Assembly (NCBI GenBank): GCA_964016885.1
Contig: OZ024762.1
Span: forward strand, 5,952,001 to 6,016,000
DNA from: Eledone cirrhosa
Taxonomy: Eukaryota
DNA length: 64,000 nucleotides
Reading direction: 5' to 3'
Positions within the stretch are counted from its first letter, which is position 1. The number at the start of each line of letters is the position of its first letter. Positions 1 through 36,369 of the stretch are shown here, piece by piece. The translations under genes were made by a program, and so were the position numbers. The notes beneath the pieces are model-generated. The model saw only the letters and a program-made list of their open reading frames with translations, had not been told where the DNA came from and made no database searches.

Positions 1-312
1 TGAGAGAGAAACTGTGTATAAGAGGGATAAGTTGTAATGTGCGGGAGAGAATGCTGCGTTGGTATGGACATGTGATGTGCATGGAGGATGACCGCTGGGT
101 AAAGAAGTGCCAAGAAGTCCCAATGGAAGGAAGACACAGTAGAGAAAGACCACGAAAAACATGGGCAGAGGTGGTTATTACAGACCTCAGATCGCTGAAG
201 CTCACGGAGGAGATGACGAAGGACTGTGACAAATGGAGAGATGCCGTACTTAATAAGACCCGTCCCACCTTCACAAGCAGAGAAAAGCGGACATAAAATG
301 ATGATGATGATG
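1..312 (+). mobile_element. RTE-clade LINE 3' fragment
   Basis: ORF 39-296 (RLRWYGHV...GRHSRERPRKTW...W) matches the typical RTE ORF2 C-terminus; ends in an (ATG)n tail. Confidence 0.8.
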
Positions 313-685
313 AATGTACACATTGTGTATTTAATAATATACTGTATGTTTATTTTAAAACATTTTCAAGGCCTTTGTTATTGCTGAAGCTAGATGTGTG
401 ACATTAGTCACTACCTTAAAATTCATTGTGAAAGGCCTTCAAAATGTTTTTAAATAATATATATGCATTAGAGAGGTTACCCAGTACTCCTCGCTGCTGT
501 CTTTTGCTCTGGTGGTGGCTCGGTTGTCCACCCCTTCCTTTACATTTTCTTTAATATTGCAACATTAAAAGAATATATCCTTCTGAAAGAATTGCGAGCA
601 ATAATGTTATATAAGCATTTGTAATGTTATGTTTATACTTAAAACATATTTGTTGTTATTCTACTGTTAATTTATTTATATGCTT

Positions 686-687
686 TG

Positions 688-726
<39 letters not shown>

Positions 727-1000
727 TGTTCCATATCTCTTTCTATTATCTCTGTCAGAACACCTCGCTACTCCTACATACACATACATATATACATATA
801 TACATATATACATACATATATACATACATACATATACGCACACATACATATCTACCTACATACATGTACATATATACATACATATATACATACGCACATA
901 CATACATATATACGTACATACACACATACATACGCACATACACACACACATACACATATACATACAAACATACATACATACACACATACACACATACATC
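686..1000. repeat. (TA)n/(CATA)n compound microsatellite
   Basis: Visible low-complexity tract; source of the spurious YI/HT ORFs. Confidence 0.95.
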
Positions 1001-1315
1001 ACACTTATGAATTACTGAAACGTGTTAGCATGTCTATGTATAGTGAAAAACAGAGTGAATGGAGATGGGGTGGGGTAAGAAGGGGGTGGTTGACGAGGAG
1101 GGGGAAGAAGAAGAAGAAGAAGAAGAAGAAGAAGAAGGGGATGGCCAGCCGAGGTCTGTGATATCAATCTGTGTGTCATACAATTGAACAAACGAGAAAG
1201 TTAGTTCGTGGCAAGTCCACGCGTCCAGGTTTTGGACAGATCGATAAGAAAGACAGCGTGAAAGTAGATCAAATTGTTTGAATAGGTTTGTCAGCTGATG
1301 TAGACAGCTGGTGCT

Positions 1316-1323
1316 TGACGTCA
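1316..1323. promoter_or_regulatory. Palindromic CRE motif TGACGTCA upstream of the F-box gene, next to two CAGCTG E-boxes
   Basis: Exact motif ~255 bp upstream of ATG 1579; function not demonstrated. Confidence 0.3.
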
Positions 1324-1578
1324 GAGCTTCAATGAATTGAGCTTCCAACTTTCCATTCAGTCAGATCTTGTGTAGGCGTTTGTCCAGTTTTATGAATGAA
1401 ATTTTTTTCCTTACTACGCCAGACACATATAGTAATGGCTTGATGCTGCTGAAAAGAAAGAAGAAGAAAATCTGGATTGGACTAGATAGGACTGGACTGG
1501 TCAAAAGAAAAAGAAGAAAAAAAAGAAGAGAAAAGAAAGGGAAAGGGAGAGAAAAAGAATATATCACCAACTTCAGCA

Positions 1579-2099
1579 ATGAGTGAAGTTATAAACATCG
1601 CTGAAGATGATAAAAGTTGTGGAGAAAGTAATTCTCAGTTAGAGAGCCAGATGAGAAGTTGTGAAAGGTGTTATATCAATGAGTTACCTGGTGAGCTGAT
1701 AGCAAGGATTTTCCAGTATTTCCATCCCGTAGAAGACCAGTTGTCACTTCTGGCGTTTGTTTGTTGTAAGTGGAGAGACGTATTGGAACACACCGCCACA
1801 CTTTGGCGCAACTTACACATCAACCCAACACGTTATAGTTACCGGCATTTCAGCCTTGTGTGTTCTATATTCCGTGTCTATGGACATCATATACAAAAGC
1901 TGACATGGAGGGAACAGTCACCGGTTTACGAGAGTGTATTCTCTCTCATTCCTCGCTTGACAAATCTGCGCTATCTTCGCTTACCAATTTTGTGGACCAA
2001 GGCTGTTGTGGAGAGCCTGGCACCACTCAGCAATATGGAACAGGTGCAAATCAACGGCGGTTTCTCTCTCACAGATGAGGACCTATTACAGATAGCTCG
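1579..2099 (+). CDS. F-box/LRR protein, coding exon 1 (F-box domain)
   Basis: INELPGELIARIFQYF...VCCKWRDV...LW F-box motif; donor CG|gtaagt at 2099/2100, phase 2. Confidence 0.9.
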
Positions 2100-2219
2100 G
2101 TAAGTAACAAACTTTTCTTTACAATTTATAGTTTTCCAGGGGTCGCCTCAAATATTGAAGCAAAATTATTTTAAAGACTAATACTGCAAAATATATATAT
2201 ATACATATACATGGTGTGC

Positions 2220-2260
<41 letters not shown>

Positions 2261-2264
<4 letters not shown>

Positions 2265-2571
2265 GGAGGTGAGTTTTATTGTAGCACAATAAAGCAATGC
2301 AAATATCGGATAAGTAGCACTCTACAGTTTGTAGGACTGGAGTATAAATAATATAAGATCAAAAGATGGTTAAAAGAGTTCCAAGTACTTTATTATGCGC
2401 ATTTCAAAAACAAATATCATCATGGGATGATATCTGGGTTTTCATCAGATAAAATAGGGATACATGATATGAACTTAAAAAACACTTGTGAATAGTGAAG
2501 TTTTAAATCAACATATGAAAAATAATTTAAGATTGATGTGTGAGATTGGGAAAAAGTGAGGGGGGGGGGGG
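2261..2571 (-). mobile_element. Penelope-like pseudo-LTR-type repeat carrying a hammerhead motif (left arm of inverted repeat)
   Basis: Reverse complement of 2645-2873; homologous to 18480-18770. Confidence 0.6.
2386..2456 (-). ncRNA. Minimal type I hammerhead ribozyme motif
   Basis: Minus strand reads tattttat-CTGATGA-[stem II hairpin]-GAAA-tgcgca-TA-ataaagta. Confidence 0.75.
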
Positions 2572-2644
2572 TATCTAACTTCCTTCTCATACTCCTCCCC
2601 CACCATTCTTTACTCTCATCTCCTCCTCTTCCTTACCTTTTCCA

Positions 2645-2873
2645 CCCCCCCCCCCTCACTTTTTCCCAATCTCATACATCAATCTTAAATTATTTTTCAT
2701 ATGTTGATTTAAAACTTCACTATTCACAAGTGTTTTTTAAGCTTCATATCATGTATCCCTATTTTATCTGATGAAAACGCAGATATCATCCCATGATGAT
2801 ATTTGTTTTTGAAATGCGCATAATAAAATACTTGGAACTCTTTTAACCATCTTTTGATCTTATATTATTTATA
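2645..2873 (+). mobile_element. Penelope-like pseudo-LTR-type repeat (right arm of inverted repeat)
   Basis: Near-perfect inverted copy of 2343-2571. Confidence 0.6.
2760..2830 (+). ncRNA. Minimal type I hammerhead ribozyme motif
   Basis: Stem I tattttat/ataaaata (8 bp); CTGATGA 2768-2774; stem II gcagatatcatc/gatgatatttgt; GAAA 2811-2814; palindromic stem III tgcgca; UH = TA 2821-2822. Confidence 0.8.
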
Positions 2874-3209
2874 TATATGTATATATATATATTATATGTG
2901 GTGAGTAGAGAGATGCTGTACTGAGAAGGACCCATCCAACCCATGTGAGCAGGGAAAAACAGACAAAAACAAATGATGAAAGAGAGAAGGAGAGAAAGAG
3001 AGAGAGGTGGGGGTGTATTAATACACATACACACAAAAATACATGTGTACATATATACATAAATACACCCATATATATATAAACAAGATCCACATCAACA
3101 ACTGCATGTAACTGTCTTCATTAGAAGTGTGGGAAGCAGTCAAAATGTACAATACAGTTATATCTGTTATATACAGTCTAGATAACAGAGACTGCGTCAA
3201 TGTATATAT

Positions 3210-3367
3210 AAATATACACATTTTTAATGTATAGTCGTGTAAATATACACATTTTTAATGTATAGTCGTGTAAATATACACATTTTTAATGTATAGTTGT
3301 GTAAATATACACATTTTTAATGTATAGTCGTGTAAATATACACATTTTTAATGTATAGTCGTGTAAA
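3210..3367. repeat. 31-bp tandem repeat, ~5 copies
   Basis: Unit aaatatacacatttttaatgtatagtcgtgt. Confidence 0.9.
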
Positions 3368-3502
3368 CTTGCCAAAGGACTCGATAAGGTAGGGCCTTAG
3401 AGTAATAAGATACGTTTAAATAGCTTGACAAATCGAACATTGTGGTAGGCGAATCTAACACACCATATATACCAAAGTAACGATAGAACTAATGAGTTTG
3501 AA

Positions 3503-3533
<31 letters not shown>

Positions 3534-3816
3534 TATACAAATAACAACAAAGAGCGCTTAGAACATAGGTATATCTTTAATTGCTGTCCTCTGACATTGA
3601 GCTAACCATATACTGCCTATTTGATAAGTGGAGTGTTACACACTCCCAATTCTCTCCCTTATATATATATATATATATATATGCGTGTGTGTGTGAATAA
3701 AATGTGTATAAAATGAATAAAAAATAACCAGGGTTAAATAGACTTTTGCCTATCTTAGTATGGACTAAATAGTGCATGTGGAATGGGTGCATTAGTCTCT
3801 CTTACACAATATATAT

Positions 3817-3920
<104 letters not shown>

Positions 3921-4039
3921 GTAACATACATCTGTCATAATGTTACTGATGTATGTATGTACAACACACAGATATACATACACTCAGACATAGATACAGA
4001 TCCTGTATCTAAGATGTTTGTCTATCTGTATATGTATAT

Positions 4040-4475
4040 GTCACATGTGGTAACAATATCACATGTAGTAACACAGCACCTGTCACATGTAGTGACACAG
4101 CCTCTGTCACATGTAGTGACACAGTCTCTGTCGCATGTAGTGACAGTCTCTGTCACATGTAGTGACACAGTCTCTTTCACATGTAGTGACACGTTCTCTG
4201 TCACATGTAGTGACACAGCCTCTGTCACATGTAGTGACACACTCTCTGTCACATGTAGTGACACAGTCTCTTTCACATGTAGTGACGCGTTCTCTGTCAC
4301 ATGTAGTGACACAGCCTTTGTCACATGTAGTGACACAGTCTCTTTCACATGTAGTGACACGTTCTCTGTCACATGTAGTGACACTGTCTCTGTCACATGT
4401 AGTGACACAGTCTCTGTCACATGTAGTGACACAGCCTCTGTCACATGTAGTCTCACGATCACTGTCACATGTAGA
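4040..4475. repeat. 24-bp minisatellite with internal hairpin, ~18 copies
   Basis: Unit tgtcacatgtagtgacacagtctc (tgtcac/gtgaca inverted). Confidence 0.9.
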
Positions 4476-5092
4476 TCATAAACAGTGTATTTCATTTTAA
4501 ATCTGCTTCTGAAAGTTTTAACCAATTTACCCAGAATTTGGTAGGATTTAACAAAATAGCCAACTGTTTCACTGTTAATCTGGGGTATTGAACCTACACT
4601 CAGGCTCGTTTGTCTCAGTTTTTAAGCAGTTGTCTCCCCTTTGTTCTCCTTCGCAGGTACACACTGCTGAATGCTAAGCTCAGACGTTTCATAAACAACG
4701 CGTCTATATATGCATATCTTATATATCATCGTCATCATCATTTAACATCCATTTTCACTGTTAGCATGGGTTAGACGAGCTATCCTGTTGTGAGACAAGT
4801 CAGGTCGGAGGAGCATGTTTTGCTCACACACAACTGATTCTGGCTTGGCTTCTACAGCTGGATGCCCTTCCTAATGCCTATCACATTTTCATTCATCAGA
4901 ATGAAAATTCTAATGAACGATTTCTGATGAACGATTTCACATGTCTCTGTTGAGTTTGCCTGTCTTCGTGAAACCTTTGGTAAATGGAATAATTGTATTG
5001 TGTTGTTTATTACATAATTAAATAGCTCTGTACTATATATAGAGCACTTTCCCTTCCTTTACTCTTTCTAGCGAAATATTTCATATATATAT

Positions 5093-5149
<57 letters not shown>

Positions 5150-5349
5150 GTAATAATAATAAATTTGAAGAGTAAAATCCAAAGAGGGCTCGGTAAGGAT
5201 AAATATATATCAAATATATAAAAACCATAGAGCAAATATTTATTAAAATAACAGATTAAAGTTTAAGCAAAGAATCGCTGCTTTCACCCTTAACAGGATC
5301 TTTAATCTGTTATTTTAATAAATATATATATATATATATATATGATTAT

Positions 5350-5696
5350 ATCATCATCATTCATCATTTCATTTTACGTCCGCTTCTCCCTGCTTGCAAG
5401 GGTGGGACGGGAACTGATTCTGGCTTGATTTCTACAGCTGGATGCCCTTCCTAACACCAACCTCATATACAGTGTGGGCTGGGTGCTTTTTTGCTGTGGC
5501 ACCTCCAAGACCACTTTGCAGTGGAATGATAGGGACCCCAGTCCCTATCATCTCATTTCTACAGCTGAGTAAACTGGAGCAATGTGAAATAAAGTGTCTT
5601 GCTCAAGGAAACAACACATCACCCGATCTGAGAATTGAACTCACAACCTTTCGATTGCAAGGCCAATGCTCTAACAAACTAAGCCATGTGCCTCCT
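5350..5696 (-). mobile_element. tRNA-derived SINE with CORE-like domain (young family)
   Basis: Minus strand has A-box and B-box (gagttcaattc) plus CORE-like tccttgagcaagacactt; near-identical copies at 11040, 17775, 29525 and 36370. Confidence 0.8.
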
Positions 5697-5796
5697 ATAT
5701 ATATATGATTATATCATGTTAAATATTATTATGTACCCAAGTCTAAATATTCCGCTTTTAATTATTCTTTCTTTTCTTTTCTTTTCTTTTTAACAG

Positions 5797-6115
5797 TTAT
5801 TTTCCATATTTGAAAGAGATTTCACTGAATGCCTGTTGGCAGATCACATCAGATGGTGTGTTGAGGTTACTGGAGATGTTACCAGCGCTTGAGGCAGTGA
5901 AATTTAAGATTAATTCTGGTCTCTCTTTCAATGATGTACGGAGTGAGAGAGCAATGAGCGAAGGAGCAAGAATTATTCAAAATGTGGCCAATTCAGAATT
6001 TGCCAGTCTTGTTACAGTTTTGTGTCTCCATTTTGTACCAATTGAAATGGAAGAATTGTGGGATTTAGTGAGGAAATTTCTGAATTTGAAGAAACTTTGT
6101 ATCAGCAATTGTGAG
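5797..6115 (+). CDS. F-box/LRR protein, coding exon 2 (LRRs)
   Basis: Polypyrimidine-taacag acceptor; frame continues R-YFPYLKEISLNACWQIT; donor GAG|gtaag. Confidence 0.9.
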
Positions 6116-6271
6116 GTAAGATAAATAAATATATATATAAATGTAATTTGCGTTTTCAAATATGAATAATAATATTCGATTCATTTGCAATTATGTAAAC
6201 AGCCTCTTTAAGCCATGTCAGTAGAATGTCTCCGTCATTCTTGCTCTTGTGTTGCCATGTAAACAGAACTG

Positions 6272-6324
<53 letters not shown>

Positions 6325-6329
<5 letters not shown>

Positions 6330-6712
6330 CGTTTCTGAATTTGTTTAGCAAGATTCTTTATCTGAAAACGTGTGTTGAAAACGATATTGCTATACTTTGG
6401 GAGGGTCATGTTGCCAATAAGAAACACACGCACCAGTTGCTTTCACTCCAATTTATTATAAATAAAAAATTTTTTTTAAAATTTATAATAAATTGGAGTG
6501 AAAGCATGGTGCATGTGTTTCTTATTGGCAACATGACCCTACCAAAGTATAACAATATATATATATATATATATATATACTTCGTTTTTGAAGTACTTCG
6601 TTTTGCAAGATTTTTTATCTAAAAACATGTGTTGAAGCATATTGTTATACATTGGGAGGGTCATGCTGTCAATAAAAACACACGCACCTATTGTTTACTT
6701 CAATTTATTATA
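6325..6712. repeat. Foldback/MITE-like inverted repeat plus a third direct copy
   Basis: 6385-6463 is inverted relative to 6481-6558; 6580-6712 repeats the first arm. Confidence 0.75.
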
Positions 6713-7096
6713 AAATTTTCCGGCTGGTTGGTTCAATAACCGGATGGTTATTTATATAATGTCAAAGCTGTTTCATCACACAATCTGTGACCTCCTTAGT
6801 GACTGGGTTTTTATTCTGTGTCTCTCCTTTGTTCTACACCATCTTGTTTTTGGTCATCCACGTTGGGGTCGTTCACAGCATGTACTGGCTTCATTACCAC
6901 ATGACAAGGTGGACAGAGTGCTCTTTCATGGAACCAGGACTATACATATATATATTTGTTCTTCTTTATTTTTAAACATTAGGCTAAGGCCATGTTAGGG
7001 CACCATATTGATTTAGTGGCTTATATCGAACTGAGAGCTAATTTTTTCAAGCAGGGTACTACTTTATCAATCTCTTTTTGTCAAACAAGACAAATG

Positions 7097-7240
7097 TAAT
7101 GATAGACAGGTACGCCTGTGTATTGATAGACAGGTACGCCTGTGTATTGATAGACAGGTACGTCTGTGTATTGATAGACAGGTACGCCTGTGTATTGATA
7201 GACAGGTACGCCTGTGTATTGATAGACAGGTACGCCTGTA
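7097..7240. repeat. 24-bp tandem repeat, ~6 copies
   Basis: Unit ttgatagacaggtacgcctgtgta. Confidence 0.9.
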
Positions 7241-7606
7241 TTTACATGGATACATATAAAAAAAAAGCTATAGGTGACAAACGCTTGTTGTTGGATGTTG
7301 TTGTATCTTGATGTGATGGTGATGATGGGGGAGAGTGAAAGAGGAAGGGTGTGGGAGAGTGTGTTTGAGAGAGAGAGAGAGGGACTGAGAGAGATGGGTT
7401 GGTGCGAACTGTGTAGGGGGTTGGGGGAGGGAGAGTGTGTGCATGTGTAAGATGTGGGTGGGTTAAGCTGTGCAGTGGTGGTGGGGGTGAGAGCAATCGA
7501 GATGAGATAATGAGTGTGTGGGCGGTGTGTCGAGGTCTACCCCCCACTCACCTCCGTCATAACTTCTTTGACGTCATCACATTGATTGTCAACAGATGGC
7601 ACTATT

Positions 7607-8620
7607 GCTGTTGTTGTTTAGCCCTAGGTCAGACATGACAGAGCAGGACTATATGATCACAGCTTGGCTGTTGTTGTTTAGCCCTAGGTCAGACATGACG
7701 GAGCAGGACTATATGATCACAGCTTGGCTGTTGTTGTTTAGCCCTAGGTCAGACATGACAGAGCAGGACTATATGATCACAGCCTGGCTGTTGTTGTTTA
7801 GCCCTAGGTCAGACATGACAGAGCAGGACTATATGATCACAGCCTGGCTGTTGTTGTTTAGCCCTAGGTCAGACATGACAGAGCAGGACTATATGATCAC
7901 AGCTTGGCTGTTGTTGTTTAGCCCTAGGTCAGACATGACAGAGCAGGACTATATGATCACAGCTTGGCTGTTGTTGTTTAGCCCTAGGTCAGACATGACA
8001 GAGCAGGACTATATGATCACAGCTTGGCTGTTGTTGTTTAGCCCTAGGTCAGACATGACAGAGCAGGACTATATGATCACAGCCTGGCTGTTGTTGTTTA
8101 GCCCTAGGTCAGACATGACAGAGCAGGACTATATGATCACAGCCTGGCTGTTGTTGTTTAGCCCTAGGTCAGACATGACAGAGCAGGACTATATGATCAC
8201 AGCTTGGCTGTTGTTGTATAGCCCTAGGTCAGACATGACAGAGCAGGACTATATGATCACAGCTTGGCTGTTGTTGTTTAGCCCTAGGTCAGACTTGACA
8301 GAGCAGGACTATATGATCACAGCTTGGCTGTTGTTGTTTAGCCCTAGGTCAGACATGACGGAGCAGGACTATATGATCACAGCTTGGCTGTTGTTGTATA
8401 GCCCTAGGTCAGACATGACAGAGCACGACTATATGATCACAGCTTGGCTGTTGTTGTTTAGCCCTAGGTCAGACATGACAGAGCAGGACTATATGATCAC
8501 AGCTTGGCTGTTGTTGTTTAGCCCTAGGTCAGACATGACAGAGCAGGACTATATGATCACAGCTTGGCTGTTGTTGTTTAGCCCTAGGTCAGACATGATA
8601 GTTGAAGACCATATGATCAA
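7607..8620. repeat. 60-bp minisatellite, ~16.5 highly similar copies
   Basis: Unit ctgttgttgtttagccctaggtcagacatgacagagcaggactatatgatcacagcttgg. Confidence 0.97.
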
Positions 8621-8824
8621 AGGTTTTCCAGCATTGTTGCCTTGTCAAGGAACCAACACCCTAACCACTGGGTCAGAGGCCTCTCCCTTAGTCATGTGCT
8701 CAACTTATATCCTTCAAATGGAGTACGAGTTGAAGGAGTTTTTAATGACTACATGGAAGCGGTGTTGTTTGTTGTTGTTGTTGGTGTTGGTGATAGTGGT
8801 GGAGATGGTGATGGAGAAGTTTGG

Positions 8825-9340
8825 ATGTCATGAGAGCGGTAGAGCATCCAGTGCACATATTTGCCAATGTGGTTGTGTCTTTCTATATAGTCAGTTTTTG
8901 CCAGCTCTGAACACACACAGATAACATGATCTGCTGTTTCTTCATGTTTGTAGCATATTCTACATAGAGGGTTAGTCCCATCTTTTACTATTCCGTGTCT
9001 ATAGTCCCGAGTGTTTAGAGATTGGTCTTGTGCAGCAACTAAGAGTCCCTCAGTCTCTGCTTTCAAACCAACACTTCTGAGCCAAGATATTGAGTCATAC
9101 TGATCAATATCATTGTCAGAAAGTAGTTCTGGGAATCTACCATGTAGTGGTTTTGCCTTCCATTCACGGTTTAGTTCATCTGTTTGGAGTTTCTTTGTTT
9201 TGATCTTCAGTCATAGCTAGCTGTGCAGCTCTCTGTTGTTGATTTTCTATGGGTTCGTCTTGTTCCATGTTCAGTTTTTGGCTAAATTTGCTCGCCTCTT
9301 GTTATTGAGTGTAGTTTTTTAATCCATTCATGCTTGAGTA
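8825..9340 (-). mobile_element. Decayed RLE-type (R4/Dong/NeSL-like) non-LTR retrotransposon fragment
   Basis: ETEGLLVAAQDQSLNTR...CRIC...EETADHVICVC...RHN, the CCHC knuckle that precedes the RLE domain. Confidence 0.75.
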
Positions 9341-9569
9341 GAGGCTTATTCAGGGTGACTGTGGATTTTGTGGGCTTTCTACATGAGTAACCCTTGGTGG
9401 TCTCCTCTCTACTGGGGATTTTTCCTTTGTTTCCATTTTTTTGTTACATCTTTTGTTCTTCTTTCCTTTTTGTTACATGCAGAAACCCATATTTTTACCA
9501 TCCTCTACTGTCCTGCCCTTAATGTATTTTTTGTAAACCCTTTGTGGTTAATAAATAAATCACCACCAC

Positions 9570-9603
<34 letters not shown>

Positions 9604-9614
9604 TTTATTTTCAG

Positions 9615-10688
9615 CAACTTCATGGTATCCGTCTGTTCAGCTCTTCTCTTCAGAAACTCTACCTTTACAATCTTTGGAACGTTGTGTTTGTCAGTGTCAG
9701 GGCCGATTCTTTACGTGTGACCGAGATTGACCATGGCCTGGAATCTATTGAACATCTGGAGCTGTTTTCATCAAAACTTCGTCGAGTTGCCGTCAATGGC
9801 AGTGATGTGTTACACACTTTGAATATTCGCAGCCAACGTCTCGCCATATTGGAACTGTGTTACTGCGAAGAAATAGAAATGAGTAGCTTGAAGGAAACAC
9901 TTCAAAACAATCCGACGATAGTCTGCTTGAAACTTGGTTGTATTTCTCAGGACAGTCTGACTTTGGATGAGTTTACAATCCCTAGTGTACAAGAATTGTG
10001 TCTCCTTGCTGATTTTGCTTGTGAAACTCTGCATATCCGAAGCCCCACGTTGCGTTTATTGCATACAGAATCAGAGAGTGATATTATTACTGTGAGTCAT
10101 GTGTACATCATAGCTAACCATCTGTGTAAAGTGGCTTTGATAGGTCTGCCTTCATTAAAAACTATGACAATACAATGCGTAAGTGTAGACTATATAGAAC
10201 TGAATCTTTGCAGCGATGACCAACTGGTGTTAGATTCTTGCGTTATCCAGGCCCTCACTGCTGTCGGGTTCTTACGCTTTTTTGACTGTAAACTGAACCT
10301 GCTTTCAATCTGCACTCCCTTAGCAAAAACGATTGTCCTCTATCGTTGCCAAATGACTGACTACGTTCTACAAATGGGTTTGACAGGTTGTTCCAGCATT
10401 GCACACTTGAATTTAGAGAAATGTCGCAATCTGGAGAAAGTTGCTATCCAGCAGTGTCTGCTGCGTTATTTAAACATGTTTGGATGTAACCAGTTACAGC
10501 AACTTTATCTTGATTGTCCACAACTGCTGGCACTGAATCTAGGGGAATGTGCAGAAAGCATACGGTTATTCCTGAAAGGTATAGAACAAGATTTAAGTGA
10601 ACTTTGTTGCCAAAAATATGTTGTTTTCCCACATGAGTCTATCAGATGGACGCATGGTTTCCCTCCACAGATTTATGCCTTCAACTAA
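9615..10688 (+). CDS. F-box/LRR protein, coding exon 3 (Cys-rich LRRs, stop)
   Basis: ttttcag acceptor at 9614; in frame with ORF 9684-10688; LxxLxLxxC repeats; joined CDS 1914 nt = 637 aa. Confidence 0.9.
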   Translation, partial: QLHGIRLFSSSLQKLYLYNLWNVVFVSVRADSLRVTEIDHGLESIEHLELFSSKLRRVAVNGSDVLHTLNIRSQRLAILELCYCEEIEMSSLKETLQNNPTIVCLKLGCISQDSLTLDEFTIPSVQELCLLADFACETLHIRSPTLRLLHTESESDIITVSHVYIIANHLCKVALIGLPSLKTMTIQCVSVDYIELNLCSDDQLVLDSCVIQALTAVGFLRFFDCKLNLLSICTPLAKTIVLYRCQMTDYVLQMGLTGCSSIAHLNLEKCRNLEKVAIQQCLLRYLNMFGCNQLQQLYLDCPQLLALNLGECAESIRLFLKGIEQDLSELCCQKYVVFPHESIRWTHGFPPQIYAFN

Positions 10689-10904
10689 TTTCTCTCTAGA
10701 ACAAAAAAAAAAAAACAAAAAAAAAAAAAAAAAGGGAATAAGTATCTCTTTGAGAAAATTCAACATGTTTTCTTTCCAAGATATTAAATATGAAATCTGT
10801 TGTGTAATTGGTATCAGGTTGGATAGCTAAAGAGACAAAAGTATCACTAATTATTGGGCTGTGACCTCACACACACACACCAATATTACATTATATATAT
10901 ATAT

Positions 10905-11025
10905 GATCTGAGTTCAAATCCTGCCGAGGTTAACTTTGCCTTTCATCCTTACGGGGTTGATAAAATAAAGTACCAGTAATGCACTGGGATAATTGCTGGC
11001 CTTGTGCCAAAAGTAGAAACAATTA
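10905..11025 (+). mobile_element. SINE fragment, second family (gcctttcatccttacggggt central domain)
   Basis: B-box gagttcaaatcc; related copies at 12832, 23900, 38110, 59060, 59235 and 60320. Confidence 0.7.
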
Positions 11026-11039
11026 TATATATATATCAT

Positions 11040-11383
11040 CATCATCATCATCATTATCATTTTACGTCCGCTTTTCTCTGCTTGCAAGGGTGGGACGGGA
11101 ACTGATTCTGGCTTGAATTCCACAGCTGGATGCCCTTCCTAACACCAACCTCATTTACAGTGAGTGCTGGGTGCTTTTTTGCCGTGGCACCTCCACGACC
11201 ACTTTGCAGTGGAATGATAGGGACCCCAGTCCCTATCATCTCATTTCTACAGCTGAGTAAACTGGAGCAATGTGAAATAAAGTGTCTTGCTCAAGGAAAC
11301 AACACATCACCCAGTCTGAGAATTGAACTCACAACCTTTTGATTGCAAGGCCAATGCTCTAACCACTAAGCCATGTGCCTCCC
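11040..11383 (-). mobile_element. tRNA-derived SINE (young family)
   Basis: Near-identical to 5350-5696. Confidence 0.8.
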
Positions 11384-12290
11384 CTACCCAATATTACATT
11401 ATATATATATATGTATATTACATTATACATATATTTATGCAAATAAGTCTGATGGTTACCTCAACCTGCAAACCAACCACTGACCTGTACTTATAACCCC
11501 TGCTAAACCAAAGCCCAACCTACATCTCTATGTTCCACAAACAAACCATGGGCTGCATCAGCTTCCAAAAGTGTCTCAATTTAAATTAGTGTTGGGACAA
11601 AAGTGTCTCAATTTAAATTAGTGATGGGACAAAAGTGTCCCATGTGCATATTTTTAACAACAACAATAAAAATGTAAATAAAGATACATATTACTGGTTA
11701 AATTTAATCAAAATTAACTATTTTCAGTTCAAATCAAACTAATTTGTTTAAAACTAGAAAATCAGTAGGGAAAGGGTTAAATATTGCAGAGCCCCTGACT
11801 ACACCACAGTCAGTCTCTCCATACTACCACAGTCAGTCTCCCCATACTACCACCTAACTACACCAGTCAGTCTCCCCATACTACCACCTAACTACACCAC
11901 AGTCAGTCTCTCCATACTACCACCTAACTACACCACAGTCAGTCTCTCTACACCAGACTGCCACCTGATTATACATATATATTCGCTAATATGCAGATCT
12001 GACTGATCAGCCAGTCAGCTAATATGCAAATCAGGCCAATCAGTCACTGTGTATTTTTTAAAATAGCATATATTTCCACTAGCTCTGACAGTTTGGCAGG
12101 TGAACAGTGAACTGTACTGATGAAGGGTGATACCCAGAAACATTAGTGTCTGCATTTCTGTTCGCATGCCAACACAAGAGCAAGAATGAAGCGTTCATTC
12201 TACTGACATGGCTATAAAATTGGGGCTTGTTTGCATAATTGCAAACGAATCGAATGATATTATTAATATTCGAAAAACTCAAATTACATG

Positions 12291-13394: not shown

Positions 13395-14389
13395 ACATTA
13401 AAATCTTTACTTTAACTCTGATACTACAAGTTTTCACAACAATCTGTCCACTAGAAAAGACACTATAATAAGCATTTGAATCTACAAACCCGGTTTTTGA
13501 AATATTTTTGACTAAATCATTACAGGATATTAAAAGTTTCAGCTGGACACTTGTATTATGTTTACTTGTAGAGAGTGAGACCCGCTATCATTGTATCATT
13601 ACAATCATTGTATTTAATGTTCACTGTAAACCATGCTGGCATGGTTGGAGTGGACACTCAGAAACTTTTCCATTGACAAACCAAAATAAAAATTCTTTGA
13701 AAATATCCAATATTACAGATTTGTTTTCATTTGAAAGCCTCAGGAATATCATCTTTCCACTAAAACAGATTTCACTTTGCTTTGATACGATATTCATATC
13801 AACTCTACATTGACTTCTAAAATGGTTACAAACCCTACCTTGATTAGGTAGAACACTAATGTATGTGTATATAAATATATATATATTTATATATATATAT
13901 ATATGTATGTAAATGAAAAAATGGCATGCTGCGTTGTTGCGAATATGAACATATGAATAAAAATAGACCGAGAAACAGGAAAAAGTCCGTCATCAGTAGT
14001 CTGCTGATTCTCATTGGTATTTCTTCGCATTAAAGACTAGATACCTAAAATCAGTGTGAGCGGTAACTCAATTAAGTTATCGGGACAGAGGAAAGTGAAC
14101 AAACAACTTGGTAGTAACGCAATGTAAAGAGAGGAAAAGAGAGACAAGTCAATGAATCTTGTGGGCTTTATATACATATTTATATATACATATATACATA
14201 TATATACATATATACATATATACATATATATACATATATACATATATATAAGCAAAAGGGATATTCAATTTGTTGGTAATTCAACAAATATAAATGTTTA
14301 TAACTGATTCGAAGCACTCAACAGATTTTCTGGAGTATAATATCAATGATATTAAATAAATGGAAACTATATTTATAAAACCATATTTA

Positions 14390-14446
14390 TTCTATTATAT
14401 ATATTTCAAGGGTACCAAAACTTTGGTACGCTCTCATCAGATAAAA
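14390..14446 (-). ncRNA. Minimal type I hammerhead ribozyme motif (second sequence family)
   Basis: Minus strand reads ttttat-CTGATGA-gagcgtaccaa agtt ttggtaccctt-GAAA-tatata-TA-atagaa. Confidence 0.75.
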
Positions 14447-14670
14447 ACCAAAGTTTGTTTTATAAATATTGACATAACCAGGAAGATCTTAAGTATCCAG
14501 GAAAAACTTGAACCGTTAAGATCTTCTTCCTGGCTATGTCAATATTTATAAAACAAACTTTGGTTTTTATCTGATGAGAGTATATACTTTCAAACGTTCA
14601 ATCGACTGACAGGAAGGTATACATTGCTGATGACAGCTAATAAGCTAGAAACTAGTTCATCGTTCCTTTG

Positions 14671-15006
14671 TCAGTGTTGAACAAAAGGGCAATGATGGTT
14701 GCCGAACACTGTAGATAGATGGGAAAGCCTCAAAGAAAAGTTTCTTACCAGGTTCTTGGTTATGCTGGCAGGATGGTTAGAATGCTTACTGATGTAATTA
14801 AGCGTATCATTCGGCTTTCTATACAGGTAGTGCAAGCCATTTGACAAATTGAGGGTAACATCGAGGTAGTTTATGACTGAAAGGTTGGCCTCAACTTGTA
14901 TGGAGGGGTTGAAGCCTTTAAAGAAGGCTGTGAGTTCTTTTCTAAACCTGTCGCAAGCACGGGGACCGCACTTTGTCATGGTCAAAAGACCATGATCGCA
15001 GTACAA
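14671..15006 (-). mobile_element. Penelope-like element reverse transcriptase fragment
   Basis: YCDHGL (degenerate YxDDGL), NYLDVTLNL, YRKPNDTLNYISKHSNHP are typical PLE RT motifs. Confidence 0.8.
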
Positions 15007-15566
15007 ACCACCGATGCGCTGAACGAGTGCGACTTTTTAGTCCAGCCAGCAACTTGAAAACTCTGGTACAAACACTACACTTGTGACAATTATTGACACA
15101 TAGTGCTGGGCCCATGGCACTATGTAACGACAAGTGCAGAGAGATCTCCAGATATAAAGCAATGCCTGTGCCATGAAGCTTTTATAGTGAGCAAAGGCAC
15201 TGCACAAAGCCAGTCCCACTCTCTTAACCAAGATGATATTTACCAAAAAGAATAACAAGTCAACATCATTGGATTCCATCAGGGTTGCAGGTGTTATATC
15301 AGAGTTTTCCTTCTCCTAGAATTCTGCCTTGACAAAGGCTAAGGGGTCATCTCTCCCGGTGATTTTGGATGGCCATTGACTCTTAAGAGCTCCTTTGCTC
15401 CTTTGCTTCTTTGCCCTTTGTTTTTAGTCCTGCAGGATGTCCAAAGCCACCCTCCTCACCAAGAAACCTTGGTGGGGTTGCCAGTTTTGTCGCCAACGAC
15501 CCGACCATGAGACAGGTTGTACTGGGATACATGTTACCAGTAGCACCAACTGGTGACCTGACACAT

Positions 15567-18180: not shown

Positions 18181-18479
18181 ATATGTGTGTATGTATGTAT
18201 GTGTATGTATATGTGTGTGAACCTCTTAATCAATTTTGTTTAGTATATAAACCCCAAATAAATAATATACCTAGTCTCTATATTTGTAATATAAGCACAT
18301 AAACCTCATCAATTTATTTATTTATTTATATTTTTTAGCCGTTATTCACATGTTTTTCATTTTTGACAGGTTTCCGATCAAAAGTCTCTCTCCTTTCTCT
18401 TTCTCTCTCCTCCTTCCTTCTAATTTTTCCTCCATTATTTTCTTCTTCTCTCTTAGTTTTCCTTTTCCCTCTTCCTTCT

Positions 18480-18770
18480 TTTTTCCAATCTTCTCTCTCC
18501 TTTTATATATTTTTGTCATATGTTGACTGGACACTTTCTTGTTCACAAGTGTTTTTAGGGATCATATCATGTTACCTTATTTTATCTGATGAGAACGCAA
18601 TTATCATCCTAGGATGATATTTGTTTTTGAAATGTGCATAATAAAATATATGGGACTTTTTTAACCATCTTTTAATTTCTTCTTTATATACTCGTTCTGT
18701 CAACTGTTGAGTGCTCCTTATCTGATATATGCATAGTTTTATTGTTCTACAATAAAACTCACCTCCTACA
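18480..18770 (+). mobile_element. Penelope-like pseudo-LTR-type repeat, diverged copy
   Basis: Homologous to 2660-2870 and to the reverse complement of 2261-2560; ends aataaaactcacctcctaca. Confidence 0.6.
18578..18648 (+). ncRNA. Minimal type I hammerhead ribozyme motif
   Basis: tattttat-CTGATGA-[stem II ...tatcatcct aggatgata...]-GAAA-tgtgca-TA-ataaaata. Confidence 0.7.
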
Positions 18771-18834
18771 TTATATACACATATATATACACATACATAT
18801 ATATATATATATACATACATATATATATAGATAC

Positions 18835-19495
18835 AAAGACTAAGGTCCTTGTAAGTAGACGAGAAAACAGAACCCAGATCCTCTCAGGGAAATGGCCTTG
18901 CTCAGTATGTAGGAAATGTGTAGGTAAGAACTCAATTCTCTGCCCCAAATGCAAACAATGGGTACACAAGAGATGTAGCGGGATCTCAGGAAACTTAATT
19001 AAGAATGTAGGCTTCACATGCAGCAGCTGTGCTGGGACAGCAAGCAGCAAACAGCCACAAGAAACAAGTACCACCAATCTCTGTGAGGGCTCTGTAGAAA
19101 CAGTAGACAGCTTCTGCTACCTAGGTGACCGAATTAGCAGCGGAGGTGGGTGTTCAGAAAGTACAATAACTAGGGTAAGAACAGGATGGAAGAAGTTCAA
19201 GGAACTACTGCCACTGCTAGCTGCAAAAGGCTTCTTCCTCAAAATGAAAGGCAGACTGTATGATGCGTGTATCCGAACAGCAATGTTACATGGTAGTCAG
19301 ACATGGGCGCTGAAGGTGGCAGACTTAAGTAGATTAGAAAGAAATGAAGCCTGCATGCTCCGATGGATGTGTAATAGTAATATACGCGAACGACAAAGCA
19401 TAAATGAATTGAGAGAGAGACTGAGCATATGAGGAATCAAATGCTGTGTGCAGGAGAGGCGGTTGCGTTGGTATGGACATGTGATGCGTATGAAG
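18835..19495 (+). mobile_element. RTE-clade LINE fragment (RT C-terminus with Cys-rich PHD-like segment)
   Basis: WPCSVCRKCVGKNSILCPKCKQWVHKRC...FCYLGD...KGRLYDACIRTAMLHGS...RWYGHV. Confidence 0.8.
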
Positions 19496-27472: not shown

Positions 27473-27669
27473 TTAAGATAGATGGAATGAAAGCTGTCCT
27501 TCCTGTGAAGCAAGGTTCAGCTTGTCTCTCATCACTTCCACTGAAGAGTAGTCCGGAAGTTTTAAATAATTCACACAGGTCATCACAGATGGAAGGGAGT
27601 TATCAGGGTTTTCAGAATTAGAGAATGTCTTTCGTACAATAGTCAGAGGTGGGTTTAAACTACGGAAAC
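27473..27669 (-). CDS. TRIP12: E3 ubiquitin ligase TRIP12, last exon (HECT C-lobe, catalytic Cys)
   Basis: [14 protein letters not shown]...[18 protein letters not shown]...EGQLSFHLS*. Confidence 0.95.
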
Positions 27670-29111
27670 CTGAAATAATAATAATAACAATGATATAATA
27701 AAAGCAATTAAAAAGTACAACATACATCATGATGTAACAAAATTTGACAGCAATGGAATGATTAAGTTTATTATATTCTGAAAGTATTGGATACAATCGT
27801 TATATAAGCTTGAATAAGAATGGAATAGAAGTTTAGAGAGTTACTACCCCTGTCGACAACAAAGGTGTCGACCTATGTGTGTAAGGTCAGCTGTATGATG
27901 TCTGTGTGTGATGTGCAAGCTGGGGAGAAATGAAAACGGCATGCTTCAATGGATATGCAATGTAAATGTCCATGTAGATGTATATAAATGAAGTGCTAAA
28001 ATATTTTTGCTTTGGAGGTGAAATTTGTTTTTATGTTTTAAATGAATATGGCCTTCGAAACAGTTGGAAATTTGGTAAAAAATCATTACATAATGGAGTT
28101 GTAAAACAAAAACTATAGTCAAAACAACACTTAAAATATTTTAAATATAAAAATATTCTCCACTCAAGAATTTAAAAGCCACACCATCTAAACATTGTGT
28201 GTTGATTAGCTGCCTCAGTTTATATATAGGGTTTGGATTTTTGCCCATTTCTCAGGCATAAAATAATTTATATTTAAGTATATATGGTAACTAACTTATA
28301 TTAGTACCAGTAGACCAGTGCCATCAATAATAACGACAATAGTGATTAATATATTTTATTTTCGGAATCCAGGCTTACCAGACTGGGAAATTTGGGTTTT
28401 GATAAATTTATGGTCTTTGAATATAATTTACATAATCGTTCAGCATGTATGTACAGATGTCATACAGGATTAAATGTATGAGTAACTTTGGAGAAATAAC
28501 TATTTACAGGGGTAAAAATGTAGTGGAAAGTGAACTTCTTATTGTAGTAAGATGACTGAGATAAGAAATGTATTATGTGAATGTAAATTGTAAAGAGTTA
28601 CACATATATATAAGAGTAAAGACCCTCTTCAGTCACAAATGACCATAGGATTTGCATCTAGAAAATTCCCCTCCGAGGAACAAGTCTCGGCAAGGTTGTT
28701 TGTGGAAGACCGGCAGTCACCCACTTATACCAGTCTTCCTTCTCCATGCCACTGATGTTGTCCAAGGGAAAGGCAAGGGTTGATACAGCTTGACATCACA
28801 ACTCTTTTCTACAGCTGAGTAAACTGGAACAAGGTGAAATAAATTGTCTTGCTCAAGGACACAACGCATTGCCCAGTCCGAGAATTGACCTCACAACCTC
28901 CTGTTTGCAAGCCCAATACTCGAACCTCTAAGCCATGTGGCTTCACAAGAGAGAGAGAGAGACAAACTCACATGATTTATTATTGTGGTTAATTATTATT
29001 ACGATTGCGTTAGATGTTAAATGATGATGATGATGCATATATAAATTTTTGTTTTAACAAATATTTGGTTTCTTCACCAAACTTTATCAAAGCTATGTTT
29101 GTGGATTATAG

Positions 29112-29243
<132 letters not shown>

Positions 29244-29760
29244 ATATACATTATACACAGACACACACCTATACATGCATATATGTATGTATGCATATAT
29301 ATACATATAAATACATGCGTATATATATCTATATATATAAAGTTGTAGTTCCTGTTTGTTTGTTCACAAACTCCTCCTATGGTTTTGGAGATAGACCCCC
29401 ATAACCATATATATTCTGAAACTACATTGCCCAGGGTACTTCAATAAGTATATTTCATTTTAATCAACGAGTTCCCCGGGGGCACAAAAATTTTCCCCTT
29501 CGATTTATATGAAATTTAAACCATTTGCAAGGGTGGGACTGGAACTGATTCTGGCTCGATTTCTACAGCTGGATGCCCTTCCTAACACCAACCTCATTTA
29601 CAGTGTGGGCTGGGTTCTTTTTTTTTGCCGTGGCACCTACACGCCCACTTTGCAGTGGAATGATAGGGACCCCAGTCCCTATCATCTCATTTCTACAGCT
29701 GAGTAAACTGGAGCAATATATATATTACACACACAATCTACAGATAATAAAACAACTTAC

Positions 29761-29959
29761 CACCAACTGGAAGTCTTGGAGAGCCAGTAACAAACTGTAA
29801 GAAACGGCGTTGGTCTTCTCCAAGGTAGGAACTTAATATTTCAAACAAGTATTTGACAGCTTTGCTATCATGAGTATAACCATGATCAGGACGGCAACAT
29901 TCCATCAACATCTTTACTTCCCATACTTCACTTCGGCAGCCACAAAACAGTTGTTCCAG
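29761..29959 (-). CDS. TRIP12: TRIP12 exon (HECT)
   Basis: LEQLFCG...[14 protein letters not shown]...[14 protein letters not shown]; AG/GT boundaries. Confidence 0.95.
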
Positions 29960-32900
29960 CTGAAATAACACACAACAAAACAACTAATTATTTAGCATTG
30001 TACAGAAATGGGGTTTGCTGCTGTTGTTACAGACCACACTTTCTATGAGGCTGCATCTCATTCTTTGGTTGTTTTAATGACAGAGGGCCCCAATCCTATT
30101 GTGTTGTTACAGCTCACAACTATACATGTTTAGTTGACCTCATACAAGGCTGCATTTCATAGGTTTTTTGGGGCACTTTAAGGAAAAGGACTCCAATCCT
30201 ATCATGCTTGTACAGCTCACACCTTTGCAGGTTTCCCTGGCCTCTTACTAGGTTACATTTTATAAGGGTTCCAGTAGCTAGATATCTTATGTATATTTGG
30301 CTGGTTTCATTCAAGGTAATAGGCTCTATCTCATAAATGGTTTCTCAAGTGTTTGCATGATAGAACTGGGGCTCATTAAAAGTAGCGTCTTGAGCAAGAT
30401 GAACAAGAACAGTACAGAACGCCTGGTCCAGGAATTGAACACACAATAGGATGTTCACCTTATGATCATAACAAACACCTTCAGCTCACACCAATGCCAG
30501 TTTCGCTGGCCTCCTATGAAGTTTGAATGTTTTATTAATAGAACCCCCAATCCTGACAATACACTAGCCCGTTGCAGCAACCCCTTTTTAAACACTATAT
30601 ACTTGAATATACGCCACTCTGAATATAAATCACTCCCACCCTCTATTTTATGTCTGAGAAATAGGTGAATATCTAAACCCCATTTATAAACTGAGGCAGT
30701 TAATCAACACATTGTTTAGATGATGTATATAAGTCGTCTTCCCATTTTACCATCGATTGTGTGGTCACATATTCTTCAACTTATATTCAAGTATATATGG
30801 TAGTTCTCAGAGTGATTCAGCACAAGACAATGTGTGATGAGGCTGGTCTCGAGCAACACAAAATGAAGTAGCTTACTCAAGACTACAACGAGCCAACTGG
30901 TTTCCGGAATTGAACCCACAACTTTACGATCATTAGTTCAACATGCTAACCCCTAAGCCATGCATGTTCAACAAAGCAGGAGAGGAAAGAAAGTTATACT
31001 TTCTCTGCCCCCCAGTTCATGACTGTGATAATTCTAGTGTATGAAGGAAACAAATCCTGTTTTGTTGTAACTATATCTCTGATGGTTCAATTCTCTGCTC
31101 CAATCAGGATGTTCCATTATACCACACAAAAATCAATAACAAAAATAATAGCAATAAGAATATAGAGATCAATACAATTGGCTTCACTGTACACCGAATC
31201 TACAATAGATACAACAGGAACATTTGTATACTTTCTAAAATATATACATTTGTGTCTGTGTGTGGCTGTAGGTACATACAGATATACATACGTCAGTGTG
31301 TGTGTGTGTGTGTGTATTTATATATTTATATATATATATACACACACACATGTATACATACATATATATATATATATACATACACACATACAGTGATTGG
31401 TTTAACAGGAAATATGGAAAGTGTCTGAGGTCAAATATAAGTGTTATATCTGGCTTGGATTCGAGGTTGTCAGTGTTTTCTTTATGGGTTAGGGCAAGCA
31501 GTGGCCTCATTTAATGAATAGCTGTAGTTTAAATATATTTACATATACACACACCTACGAATAATGTTTACGTCAATATTTTACTTTTTGTTTACAGGTA
31601 AACCAAAACTCAATGAAAAAAAACAAACAAAAAGGCATTACAAATTCACTGAAGTTATTTTTAATAAGTGTAAATTTAGTTCCCTTACAAAATATAGTCT
31701 AAACATTTGAATTAATATTTCCAATACAAGTAGGTCTGTATTTTATTTGCAGTTAAACCAATTTATAGTTAAGTCATTAAACTTTGTTTAAAAAAAGAGG
31801 CCCACAATAATTAAGCCATTAAATTTTGGTAAAAAAAGACTGTTATAATTAAGTCAATAAACTTCGTTGAAAACCACAATAATTGAGTCATTTGAATTCG
31901 TTAAAAACCACAATAATTAATTAGACTTTGTTAAAAACCTGTTGTATTTGTTGTTGCTATGGTACACACCCACAGATTGTTTATTCATAGGCTCCATCAA
32001 TATTTAACGCTTTCACCCCCTTTTTTATGTAAAAACTTTTAAGCTAACAACTTAATAATGAAAAAGTTAAGCTATATAACTAAATTAACTCAAATATTTT
32101 ATTATTTTCAAAATAAATTGAAACACTAATCTGTGATGGCTAAAGGAACCATATGGCTAGAGGGACAGCAAGATGGCCATAAATTGTACAATGTTAGATT
32201 TGTTATATGAATGTTATGATCTAGCAACACAGCTGTTACATATATTTATGTTCTATAGCCTACAGATAGTGAGTCAGCTGCTTTTATTACCCAATATTTC
32301 ATTGAAAGCCATTGCTGTACTTTTAAATACTAACATCTCCTGGCTGACTAATTTATTGAGGCCTATAAATATAACAAGGCAATTCATAATACTCTGACAT
32401 TATATATCTTTACCTATGTATTGAAACATGTTACACACTTCTCACCCCCCGCCCCCCTCTCTCTCTCTCATTAAACTGACATCAAATGTCTCACTTGCAG
32501 GTTTGTTTAGCTGACATGCAAGTATATTATACAAAATCTAACAGATCTTGTTGAAATACAAGGATGGAAAAGTAATTATATACTACACATGTAAACAAAT
32601 GTTTTGTTTTTTTTACACAAGGTTTGTTTGTAGTCAACAATCTTAGCCTATCAGATACCAAACTACCTAAAACCACCCCAGATTCTACAATACAAAACTG
32701 TTTGTTTTAAGCTCTTTATATTTATATAGAAAACTTCCATTATAATTTTGTGAGAGCTTTACTTTGTATGTTTTGTTTGTTAGTATATTGGCTTGACCCT
32801 TCTGATACTAAACTGACTGACACCACTTCTCAACCAACACAATCTGTAAGTAACAACCACAGCTACTTCACCAAGTAGGAATTAACCACACCTACTTCCT

Positions 32901-33409
32901 TACTAATGTAACCCCCAAGTAGGAATTAACCACAGCTACTTCCTAACTAATATAACTCCCAAGTAGGAATTAACCACAGCTACTTTCTAACTAATATAAC
33001 CACCAAGTAGGAATTAACCACACCCACTTCATCATCATCATCACCGTTTTATGCCTGTTCTTCCACGCTAGCATGGGTTAGACGGATTGTCCTGTTGTGG
33101 GCAGTGTCCGGTCGGCTGACCTTGTCTTGCTCATACGGGAACTGATTCTGGCTTCATTTCTTCAGCTGGATGCCTTTCCTAACACCAACCTCATTTACAG
33201 GGAGTGCTGGGTGCTTTTTTTCCGTGGCGCCTACACGTCCACTTTACAGTGTGGGCTGGGTGCTTTTTTGCCGTGGCACCTCCACGACTACTTTGCAGTG
33301 AGAGGGTGTGGGGCATATTGTCTATATGCTTCAGCTTGTACCCGTGGGATGTCGGGTCTTCTGTATTACTGCACGACAGTAGAACTTGTATAGTTCTACC
33401 ATAGATTCA

Positions 33410-34860: not shown

Positions 34861-35529
34861 CCTATAGCATCTCAGGAGATTTGGGCGAAATAAACCGATA
34901 TGAGTACCTATATTAGACAAGGCGAAATGTTAGGATTTCGAAAGGAAAAGATGACTTTGTAGAGACAGTCATACTGGCCAGCATGGGAAAAACAAGGGTA
35001 AAGAATAAATGTGTTGTGAAGGCCAGCGAAATAATACAACAACAACAATAATAATAATAATAATAGTGCAAGCGGAACATTTGCAATTGGGAAAGAGGGG
35101 GATACCTGGAAGATATATATGGATGGCTGGTACATAGTTTTTAGCAGTTTGTTCTAGTGATTCATTTTAGCCTTTCAGAATCAAGTGTCTTATCTCGTGA
35201 AAAACCTCAAGTAGGAATGAACCACACCTACTTCCTAACTAATATAACCACTAAGTAGGAATGAACCACTCCCAGATCTGACCACTGAACTTCACCAAAA
35301 TACCCATCTCAATGAGCTTCTCACAATCAGTACATATATCCCTGAATGTTGTCAAGAAGTGACCCAAAAGGTTGGTGTAAAGAAGGGCATCTGGCTATAA
35401 AATGTTGCCTCAAAAGATCTTGTCCGATCCAAGTCGATGTAAAAACAATGATGTGAAGAAATTTCATCTCAGAATATGAAATGCTACATGTATTATCAAT
35501 TAAAGGTTTAGCAAAAAGCCATAACTCAC

Positions 35530-35643
35530 CTCTTCAGGATAGAAACTTTGTAAGGTTGACAGGGGAAACACTGATTCAAAGCCCTCTTTAAAAGCTTCAA
35601 ATTGTCTCGATACACCTTCAACAAGATTCCAATGGACAACAAG
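35530..35643 (-). CDS. TRIP12: TRIP12 exon (HECT)
   Basis: [38 protein letters not shown]. Confidence 0.93.

Positions 35644-36313: not shown

Positions 36314-36369
<56 letters not shown>

Follow-up and report, generated by a model that had tools for sequence, protein, structure and literature searches.

Inverted remnants of a Hydra-clade Penelope-like element with hammerhead motifs in the first intron of an F-box/LRR gene of Eledone cirrhosa

The first intron of an F-box/LRR gene of Eledone cirrhosa contains an inverted repeat with a hammerhead ribozyme motif in each arm, one of them in the sense of the pre-mRNA. This raises the question whether the pair is a switch controlling the integrity of the host transcript, as suggested by a sequence-only reading of the locus, or an inert insertion, which the same reading kept as a fallback. 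The window analysed here is a stretch of 64,000 nucleotides (assembly GCA_964016885.1, contig OZ024762.1, positions 5,952,001 to 6,016,000 of the forward strand), and all coordinates refer to it (Table 1). The inverted repeat is very probably what remains of a Hydra-clade Penelope-like element (PLE) that inserted into a (TA)n run of intron 1; the hammerheads are likely inactive passengers rather than a host switch. The fallback of an inert insertion is thus the best reading. It had been proposed there that self-silencing makes the insertion tolerable, but a single copy on its own, as a monomer, would probably also be tolerated.

Table 1. Features of the insertion and of its host gene (window coordinates)
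Feature	Position	Strand	Basis or remark
Coding exon 1, F-box/LRR gene	1579..2099	+	Pfam, homologues, contig junction at 2099
Intron 1, 3,697 nt, carries the insertion	2100..5796	+	X4 contig joins 2099 to letters beginning at 5797
Left flank, (TA)19, preferred target of the Hydra clade	2223..2260	.	Sequence; TA flank at the 3' end in 37/40 sampled sites
Whole insertion	2261..2873	.	Tail-out union of two 3' ends, each 5'-truncated, of a Hydra-clade PLE (by motifs), within a (TA)n run
PLE tail, antisense arm only, start of the ORF-bearing unit	2261..2342	-	Follows the pLTR in other copies; pLTR, tail and ORF contiguous in L097
Antisense arm, 3' part of the pLTR	2343..2570	-	Three private changes and one common to 3/28 copies
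Antisense-arm hammerhead motif, core 2448	2386..2456	-	Private changes: one in stem I, one in stem II; in the F-box pre-mRNA, the non-catalytic strand
Junction of the two truncated copies, 7 nt	2572..2578	.	No match to the family
Upstream pLTR sequence, 66 nt, sense arm only	2579..2644	+	Precedes the arm in most of 29 other top copies
Sense arm, at the family's short 3' end, without tail	2645..2873	+	Arm alignment and sampled sites
Sense hammerhead, type I, dimer-type, core 2768	2760..2830	+	Descriptor and folding
Stem I	2760-2767/2823-2830	+	
Core	2768-2774	+	
Stem II	2775-2810	+	
GAA	2811-2813	+	
Stem III and loop	2814-2821	+	Predicted cut after A2822
Right flank, degenerate (TA)n	2874..2895	.	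Sequence
Exon 2, 3' end approximate	5797..6115	+	tblastn
Exon 3 to the stop codon	9615..10688	+	tblastn, sequence

The host gene and the intronic location were borne out by Pfam, tblastn and a spliced contig. Exon 1 encodes an F-box-like domain (Pfam, E 3.7e-09), and three exons were placed by tblastn with a protein of Octopus bimaculoides, the best named relative (88–94% identity per exon). In a contig of sequencing run X4, at a depth of 29, exon 1 is followed directly by exon 2, and the unique flanks within the intron are at zero depth. This contig sets the boundaries of intron 1 and suggests that X4 is RNA; contigs demonstrate presence and not level, and the sample may lack the insertion. 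At positions 1830 and 2079 of exon 1, differences are seen for runs X1 and X3, which come from one sample; they suggest two haplotypes, and X4 agrees with the window.

The inverted repeat itself is real. Its arms are the two longest inverted repeats within positions 1–12000. Their alignment of 229 columns contains three substitutions and one indel, four differences in all, in agreement with the description as near-perfect. The first arm begins 243 nt past the exon 1 donor, in agreement with the earlier estimate of about 240 nt. The right end of the feature, set at 2873, also stands, but the left end does not, since the element begins at 2261 and its 82-nt tail had been missed. Nor are the letters between the arms simply a pyrimidine-rich loop: they comprise the 7-nt junction (2572–2578) and 66 nt of upstream element sequence (2579–2644). 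A natural copy at another locus, L032, matches the insertion at 2258–2561 (minus strand, 98%) and at 2579–2873 (plus strand, 97%).

The sense arm is a high-copy sequence, with 1,981 candidates in the genome, and the 40 of them that were scored match at 99–100%. A 29-mer from the 3' half of the ribozyme has 2,095 exact genome matches (1,046 on the plus and 1,049 on the minus strand, as compared to none for the control); the copy count of the family rests on this 29-mer and not on complete hammerhead motifs. In longer copies, the upstream sequence contains two frames, one for an endonuclease and one for an RT with YRDD. The first RT query belonged to a sibling family and hence yielded no full-length copy, which was obtained with a later query. 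In L099, a copy distinct from that of the window, a frame of 782 amino acids contains both YRDD and the endonuclease, and in L097 the pseudo-LTR (pLTR), the tail and the ORF are contiguous. The unit is about 3.8 kb long, being formed by an ORF of about 2.4 kb and a 3' region of about 1.27 kb; this long 3' region features an internal tandem duplication of ~190 nt with 80% identity (L062:4936-5311).

The encoded protein has the motifs by which the clade was assigned. DKT replaces DKG (HSDKT in L061, L097 and L099), and at the position of the RWK motif RLRWI aligns to RMRWK of the homologues. The frames of L021, L031 and L094 contain the CxCX5C linker (CNCPVRTKC) and the CxxC and CxH motifs around the conserved E/N (CNLC..EK and NRR..CLH), and no CCHH. 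Pfam produced no RT or GIY-YIG match in three element frames (no families for two of them and two weak unrelated ones for the third), and the RT and endonuclease were assigned by motifs and by comparison by eye with the published Hydra alignment, which includes a family from O. bimaculoides (PMC8557442, supplement). Judged by these motifs and by-eye alignment, the element is a Hydra-clade Penelope-like retroelement. The Penelope-like origin proposed from the window letters thus holds, given the pLTR-linked RT-endonuclease ORF in other copies. Two sister Hydra-like families are also present genome-wide; the same lengths (821 and 758 amino acids) recur among their many open frames, suggesting a very recent expansion.

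How common such pairs are was assessed on the first 40 sites in the listed order on one contig, picked by the exact ribozyme 29-mer; the sample therefore favours ribozyme-bearing copies. An inverted partner lies within 1.5 kb upstream at 25 of the 40 sites, at 19 of them within 60 nt. Thus the inverted pseudo-LTR copy, expected in the earlier reading as a PLE by-product, is the default footprint of the family, and hundreds of similar hairpins are implied genome-wide. Both arms span the hammerhead at 11/40 sites by coordinates and at 6/40 by the strict core pattern, while in 14 of the 25 pairs at least one arm fails to cover the ribozyme. Among the first 100 matches listed on contig C1, tail-out neighbours within 3 kb were seen 11 times against 0.045 expected, the other neighbours being one tail-in and one tandem.

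The ends of the pairs are asymmetric. Twenty-one of the 25 pairs combine a short end with a tail, three have two short ends, none has two tails, and one is unclassed; with one duplicate locus and the unclassed pair dropped, 20/23 are of the short-plus-tail type (P=2e-4), to which the window copy also belongs. The duplicate reflects L045 and L046, which look like one duplicated insertion. A TA flank is present in 37 of the 40 sites and on both flanks of the window copy. The arm length and the junction vary between copies. Among the 65 arm ends in L037–L076, 15 coincide with a 5'-truncation hot spot at CATATG, ~70 nt upstream of the core, where microhomology with TA runs is possible, and seven lie near the stem II apex, where the RT may stall.

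Four subfamily variants are common to the two arms, which fits a single event. There are only four private changes in 594 columns, the sampled copies deviating from the commonest letter by a median of 3.3%, and the insertion is roughly 2 My old, a rough figure that uses the calibration quoted in PMC13282606. All four differences between the arms are changes on the antisense arm, the chance of which is 1 in 8 (two-sided).

The following course of events would account for the structure. After nicks by the RT-endonuclease of the element on both strands of the TA run, two cDNAs may have been primed, the one at the left end from the tail start site and the one at the right end from the short start site; both would have halted after about 300 nt and been joined head-to-head via the 7-nt linker. 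Neither arm is a simple fold-back of the other, since each has unique sequence (the tail and the 66 nt, respectively). An in vitro study of a PLE protein (PMC11167929) describes nicking of AT-rich DNA, extension of both strands, two start sites bounding the tail, and a predicted dimer; the short-plus-tail asymmetry fits the two start sites and the both-strand extension of that study. In the pre-mRNA, the 229-bp hairpin would form as the second arm is transcribed, would probably be edited by ADAR, and would be spliced out and degraded with the intron.

Each arm does hold a complete type I hammerhead motif, as the sequence-only reading had it. Rfam gave no hammerhead match at the gathering level, nor any among the 38 matches at E<=10, and the motifs were located by a descriptor scan, which found cores at 2768 (plus strand) and 2448 (minus strand). 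Four descriptor matches were found in the window, as compared to a mean of 0.02 (maximum 1) over 100 shuffles. The sense motif has the type I core CUGANGA...GAA...UH with stems I and II, its numbering agrees with the earlier placement of the predicted cut after A2822, and it is the commonest variant (32/108 motif matches, some loci overlapping). Stem I is formed by eight A-U pairs, and stem II lacks the G10.1-C11.1 pair at its base, with A-U here and G-U in many copies.

Stem III consists of two A-U pairs around a palindromic loop. Its pairing probability in the free monomer is predicted to be 0.001 (37 C), and in a dimer it would become an 8-bp helix; the predicted energies of the dimer and the monomer are -41.1 and -33.2 kcal/mol, with a Kd of about 3 uM at 37 C. 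With only two A-U pairs in stem III, cleavage is predicted to depend on dimer formation. The antisense copy cannot serve as the partner, so that a tail-out inverted pair provides no dimer in cis, and the descriptor scan found no second sense hammerhead from exon 1 to the stop codon. The other two hammerheads of the window, 14440 and 18586, are situated past the stop codon at 10688. Dimer partners could come in trans from family transcripts, and protein might assist the cut. The region 2261–2873 is predicted to fold at -384 kcal/mol, and the active ribozyme fold would cost 94 kcal/mol (37 C). The antisense arm is transcribed first, and its proposed sequestering of the sense ribozyme agrees with this prediction. 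Hence the ribozyme is predicted to be off twice over, buried in the duplex and without a dimer partner. In published experiments, a single minimal hammerhead of a Schistosoma PLE was uncut in vitro and dimers gave low cleavage (PMC4209133), while an Anolis PLE ribozyme needed protein in vitro, with no RNA-seq reads ending at its site (PMC11167929).

It is very improbable that the locus is a regulated switch, with an active ribozyme masked by the antisense arm until editing or unwinding allows it to cut the F-box pre-mRNA. The masking geometry is real, with the antisense arm transcribed first, the sense core intact, and the sense arm retaining the commonest ribozyme sequence while all four changes fall on its partner. 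Moreover, young repeats are the main editing targets and octopus has the top editing rate of 22 species (bioRxiv 10.1101/2020.01.19.911685), and CPEB3 provides an example of an intronic ribozyme that can affect mRNA or tune splicing (PMC10919898; also PMC6765202). However, the arrangement is the default of the family, the insertion is young by the above calibration (PMC13282606), the monomer lacks a stable stem III, and the other hammerheads of the window are beyond the stop codon. Editing would hardly help. In a model where edited adenosines are fully unpairable (93 adenosines of the antisense arm, energies at 37 C), freeing the ribozyme would cost 83–90 kcal/mol with 10% of these adenosines unpairable, 48–68 kcal/mol with 50%, and 23 kcal/mol even with 100%. 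The core adenosines would be edited as well, and by computation all five would remain intact in 3% of cases at 50% editing. Release by editing is hardly plausible without hits to the core, and the switch is not supported. Equally small is the chance of a captured ribozyme with an antisense lock, where ADAR or a helicase, together with the PLE protein or a family RNA partner, would open the hairpin and cut the F-box pre-mRNA in some cells.

The sequencing runs, with raw reads of RAD-seq DNA, and the genomic copies were also considered for traces of editing and of an empty site. X4 differs from the window at seven A>G, six A>T and six C>T places, and the five A>G places among the rows listed are also present in X1 and X3; since other family copies lie on the arms, these places say nothing about editing at the locus. 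Genomic copies have no excess of an ADAR footprint (private A>G 15/3,803 and T>C 23/5,148), and no piece bridging the TA flanks, that is, an empty site, is seen among the contig pieces listed.

Selection might instead have filtered the copies, if those in introns in the sense orientation are mildly harmful due to trans-dimer or protein-assisted cutting and the masked ones survive more often. The predicted burial is strong, a dimer is energetically possible according to the same predictions, and in Xenopus, introns are depleted of related retrozymes (bioRxiv 10.64898/2026.07.22.740005). Still, inverted partners occur at most sites, and 14/25 pairs lack full cover of the ribozyme; being common and often not covering it, the partners need no selective explanation, and we consider the filter improbable. 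An effect of the hairpin rather than of the ribozyme, via a splicing change, hyper-editing with nuclear retention, or small RNAs directed at the family, is unlikely too, albeit compatible with the PLE remnant. A 229-bp duplex ~240 nt from the donor, with the predicted fold of -384 kcal/mol, is a candidate for such an effect, and editing of repeat-derived dsRNA is general in metazoans (bioRxiv 10.1101/2020.01.19.911685); against it, the X4 contig is correctly spliced at depth 29, although contigs show presence and not level, and hundreds of comparable hairpins are implied genome-wide. Finally, a long terminal inverted repeat in the TA context resembles a MITE or a fold-back artefact of the assembly, and the probability of either is close to negligible. 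The fixed terminal inverted repeats and uniform structure of MITEs are absent, as the arm length, the junction, and the truncation and inversion points vary by copy, and copies run into the RT-endonuclease ORF. An artefact is at odds with the four differences between the arms and the unique sequence in each; besides, short-read contigs demonstrate many inversion joints of the family, none of those listed spanning the junction of this locus.

The PLE remnant may be compared with known systems. Descriptions of Hydra-clade PLEs (Penelope-13_HM and Hydra-1_Obim; Craig et al. 2021, PMC8557442) share with the present family the C-terminal endonuclease, DKT, CxCX5C, the CxxC/CxH motifs around the conserved E/N, the lack of CCHH, the (TA)n target and the hammerhead in the pLTR. 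The supplement of that paper describes for Penelope-13_HM a 5'-truncated inverted copy and hammerheads on both strands, as in the window element. At the same time, the present family has RWI and not RWK, a unit of ~3.8 kb whereas Hydra-clade elements tend to be <3 kb, and a tail of 82–85 nt as opposed to 30–40; its hammerhead differs from that of Hydra-1_Obim, and hence it is a different family. PLEs typically have an inverted, 5'-truncated copy next to them and a tail that is often confined to one end (PMC8557442), and the hammerhead in the pLTR, 5' truncation, an inverted 5'-truncated neighbour and a one-ended tail are all seen here.

The minimal hammerheads of PLEs (Cervera and de la Pena 2014, PMC4209133) are similarly of type I, with a long stem II and a tiny palindromic helix III, and exist in thousands of mostly truncated copies; the same paper noted opposite-strand hammerhead pairs 100–700 bp apart in Schistosoma. 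They differ from the present motif, which has A-U in place of the G10.1-C11.1 pair and eight A-U pairs in stem I. The PAc Poseidon element of Anolis (Frangieh et al. 2024, PMC11167929) shares the tail and short 3' ends, the AT-rich target and a hammerhead near the pLTR–ORF junction, and both strands of its target are nicked and extended in vitro. It belongs to another clade, and its ORF begins inside the hammerhead, whereas in the present family the ORF is downstream of the tail. Non-LTR retrozymes (bioRxiv 10.64898/2026.07.22.740005) are likewise short hammerhead-bearing pLTR derivatives of PLEs, but theirs is a head-to-tail tandem and the window pair is tail-out inverted. The window insertion was rejected as a retrozyme: it has no head-to-tail tandem and only one sense copy, and only one same-strand neighbour within 3 kb was found among the first 100 matches listed. 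Judged by the titles listed, the literature search, with most subscription papers outside its scope, found nothing on this locus or on a natural hammerhead released by editing.

Intronic ribozymes adopted by the host are low-copy, conserved and active as monomers, whereas the window motif is a young member of a family of >2,000 copies, is of the dimer type and is buried in a duplex. What it has in common with them, namely the CPEB3 HDV-like ribozyme and the amniote intronic hammerheads (PMC10919898, PMC6765202), is an intronic self-cleaving motif in the sense of the pre-mRNA, in the window the motif only.

The window case is ordinary and as found matters little, with hundreds of similar insertions in the genome and an arrangement known since 2014. 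The end types of the family (20/23, no tail-plus-tail pairs) can nevertheless test the model of PLE integration with two strands and two start sites, and with gene annotation the family could test whether dimer-type ribozymes in introns cost the host. Were the switch real, a host pre-mRNA would be under the control of a natural ribozyme gated by editing, and hundreds of locked pairs would form an editing-gated layer of gene control in an animal that edits heavily.

The window contains other hammerheads and repeats. Beyond the F-box gene lies an older solitary pLTR of a related family (18396–18771, plus strand, 77% to L032). It carries a tail as well as an intact hammerhead core (18586), and a PHD-finger frame (18737–19429) follows. 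The stretches of about 14380–14580 and 14710–15021 contain a hammerhead of yet another family at 14440 (minus strand), with a TATATA loop, and a second small inverted pair, whose plus arm stops just after the core; a fragment of a Hydra-like RT is nearby. Other hammerheads that keep the core, with A/U-only stem I and a palindromic or near-palindromic loop III, and with a different but paired stem II, were observed in L033, L038, L059, L060, L064, L076, L090, L017 and L036.

Exons of a HECT ubiquitin ligase (27476–37008, minus strand) are convergent with the F-box gene, one intron containing a LINE RT fragment (33521–34594). Two 94% identical repeat copies (5350–5649 and 11038–11375) are probably a SINE, judging by the tRNA-like head (Rfam tRNA, 30.3 bits, 11312–11375, minus strand). 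Intronic tandem arrays occupy 3178–3398, 4071–4498, 7071–7262 and 7487–8746, with units of 31, 24, 24 and 60 nt, respectively.
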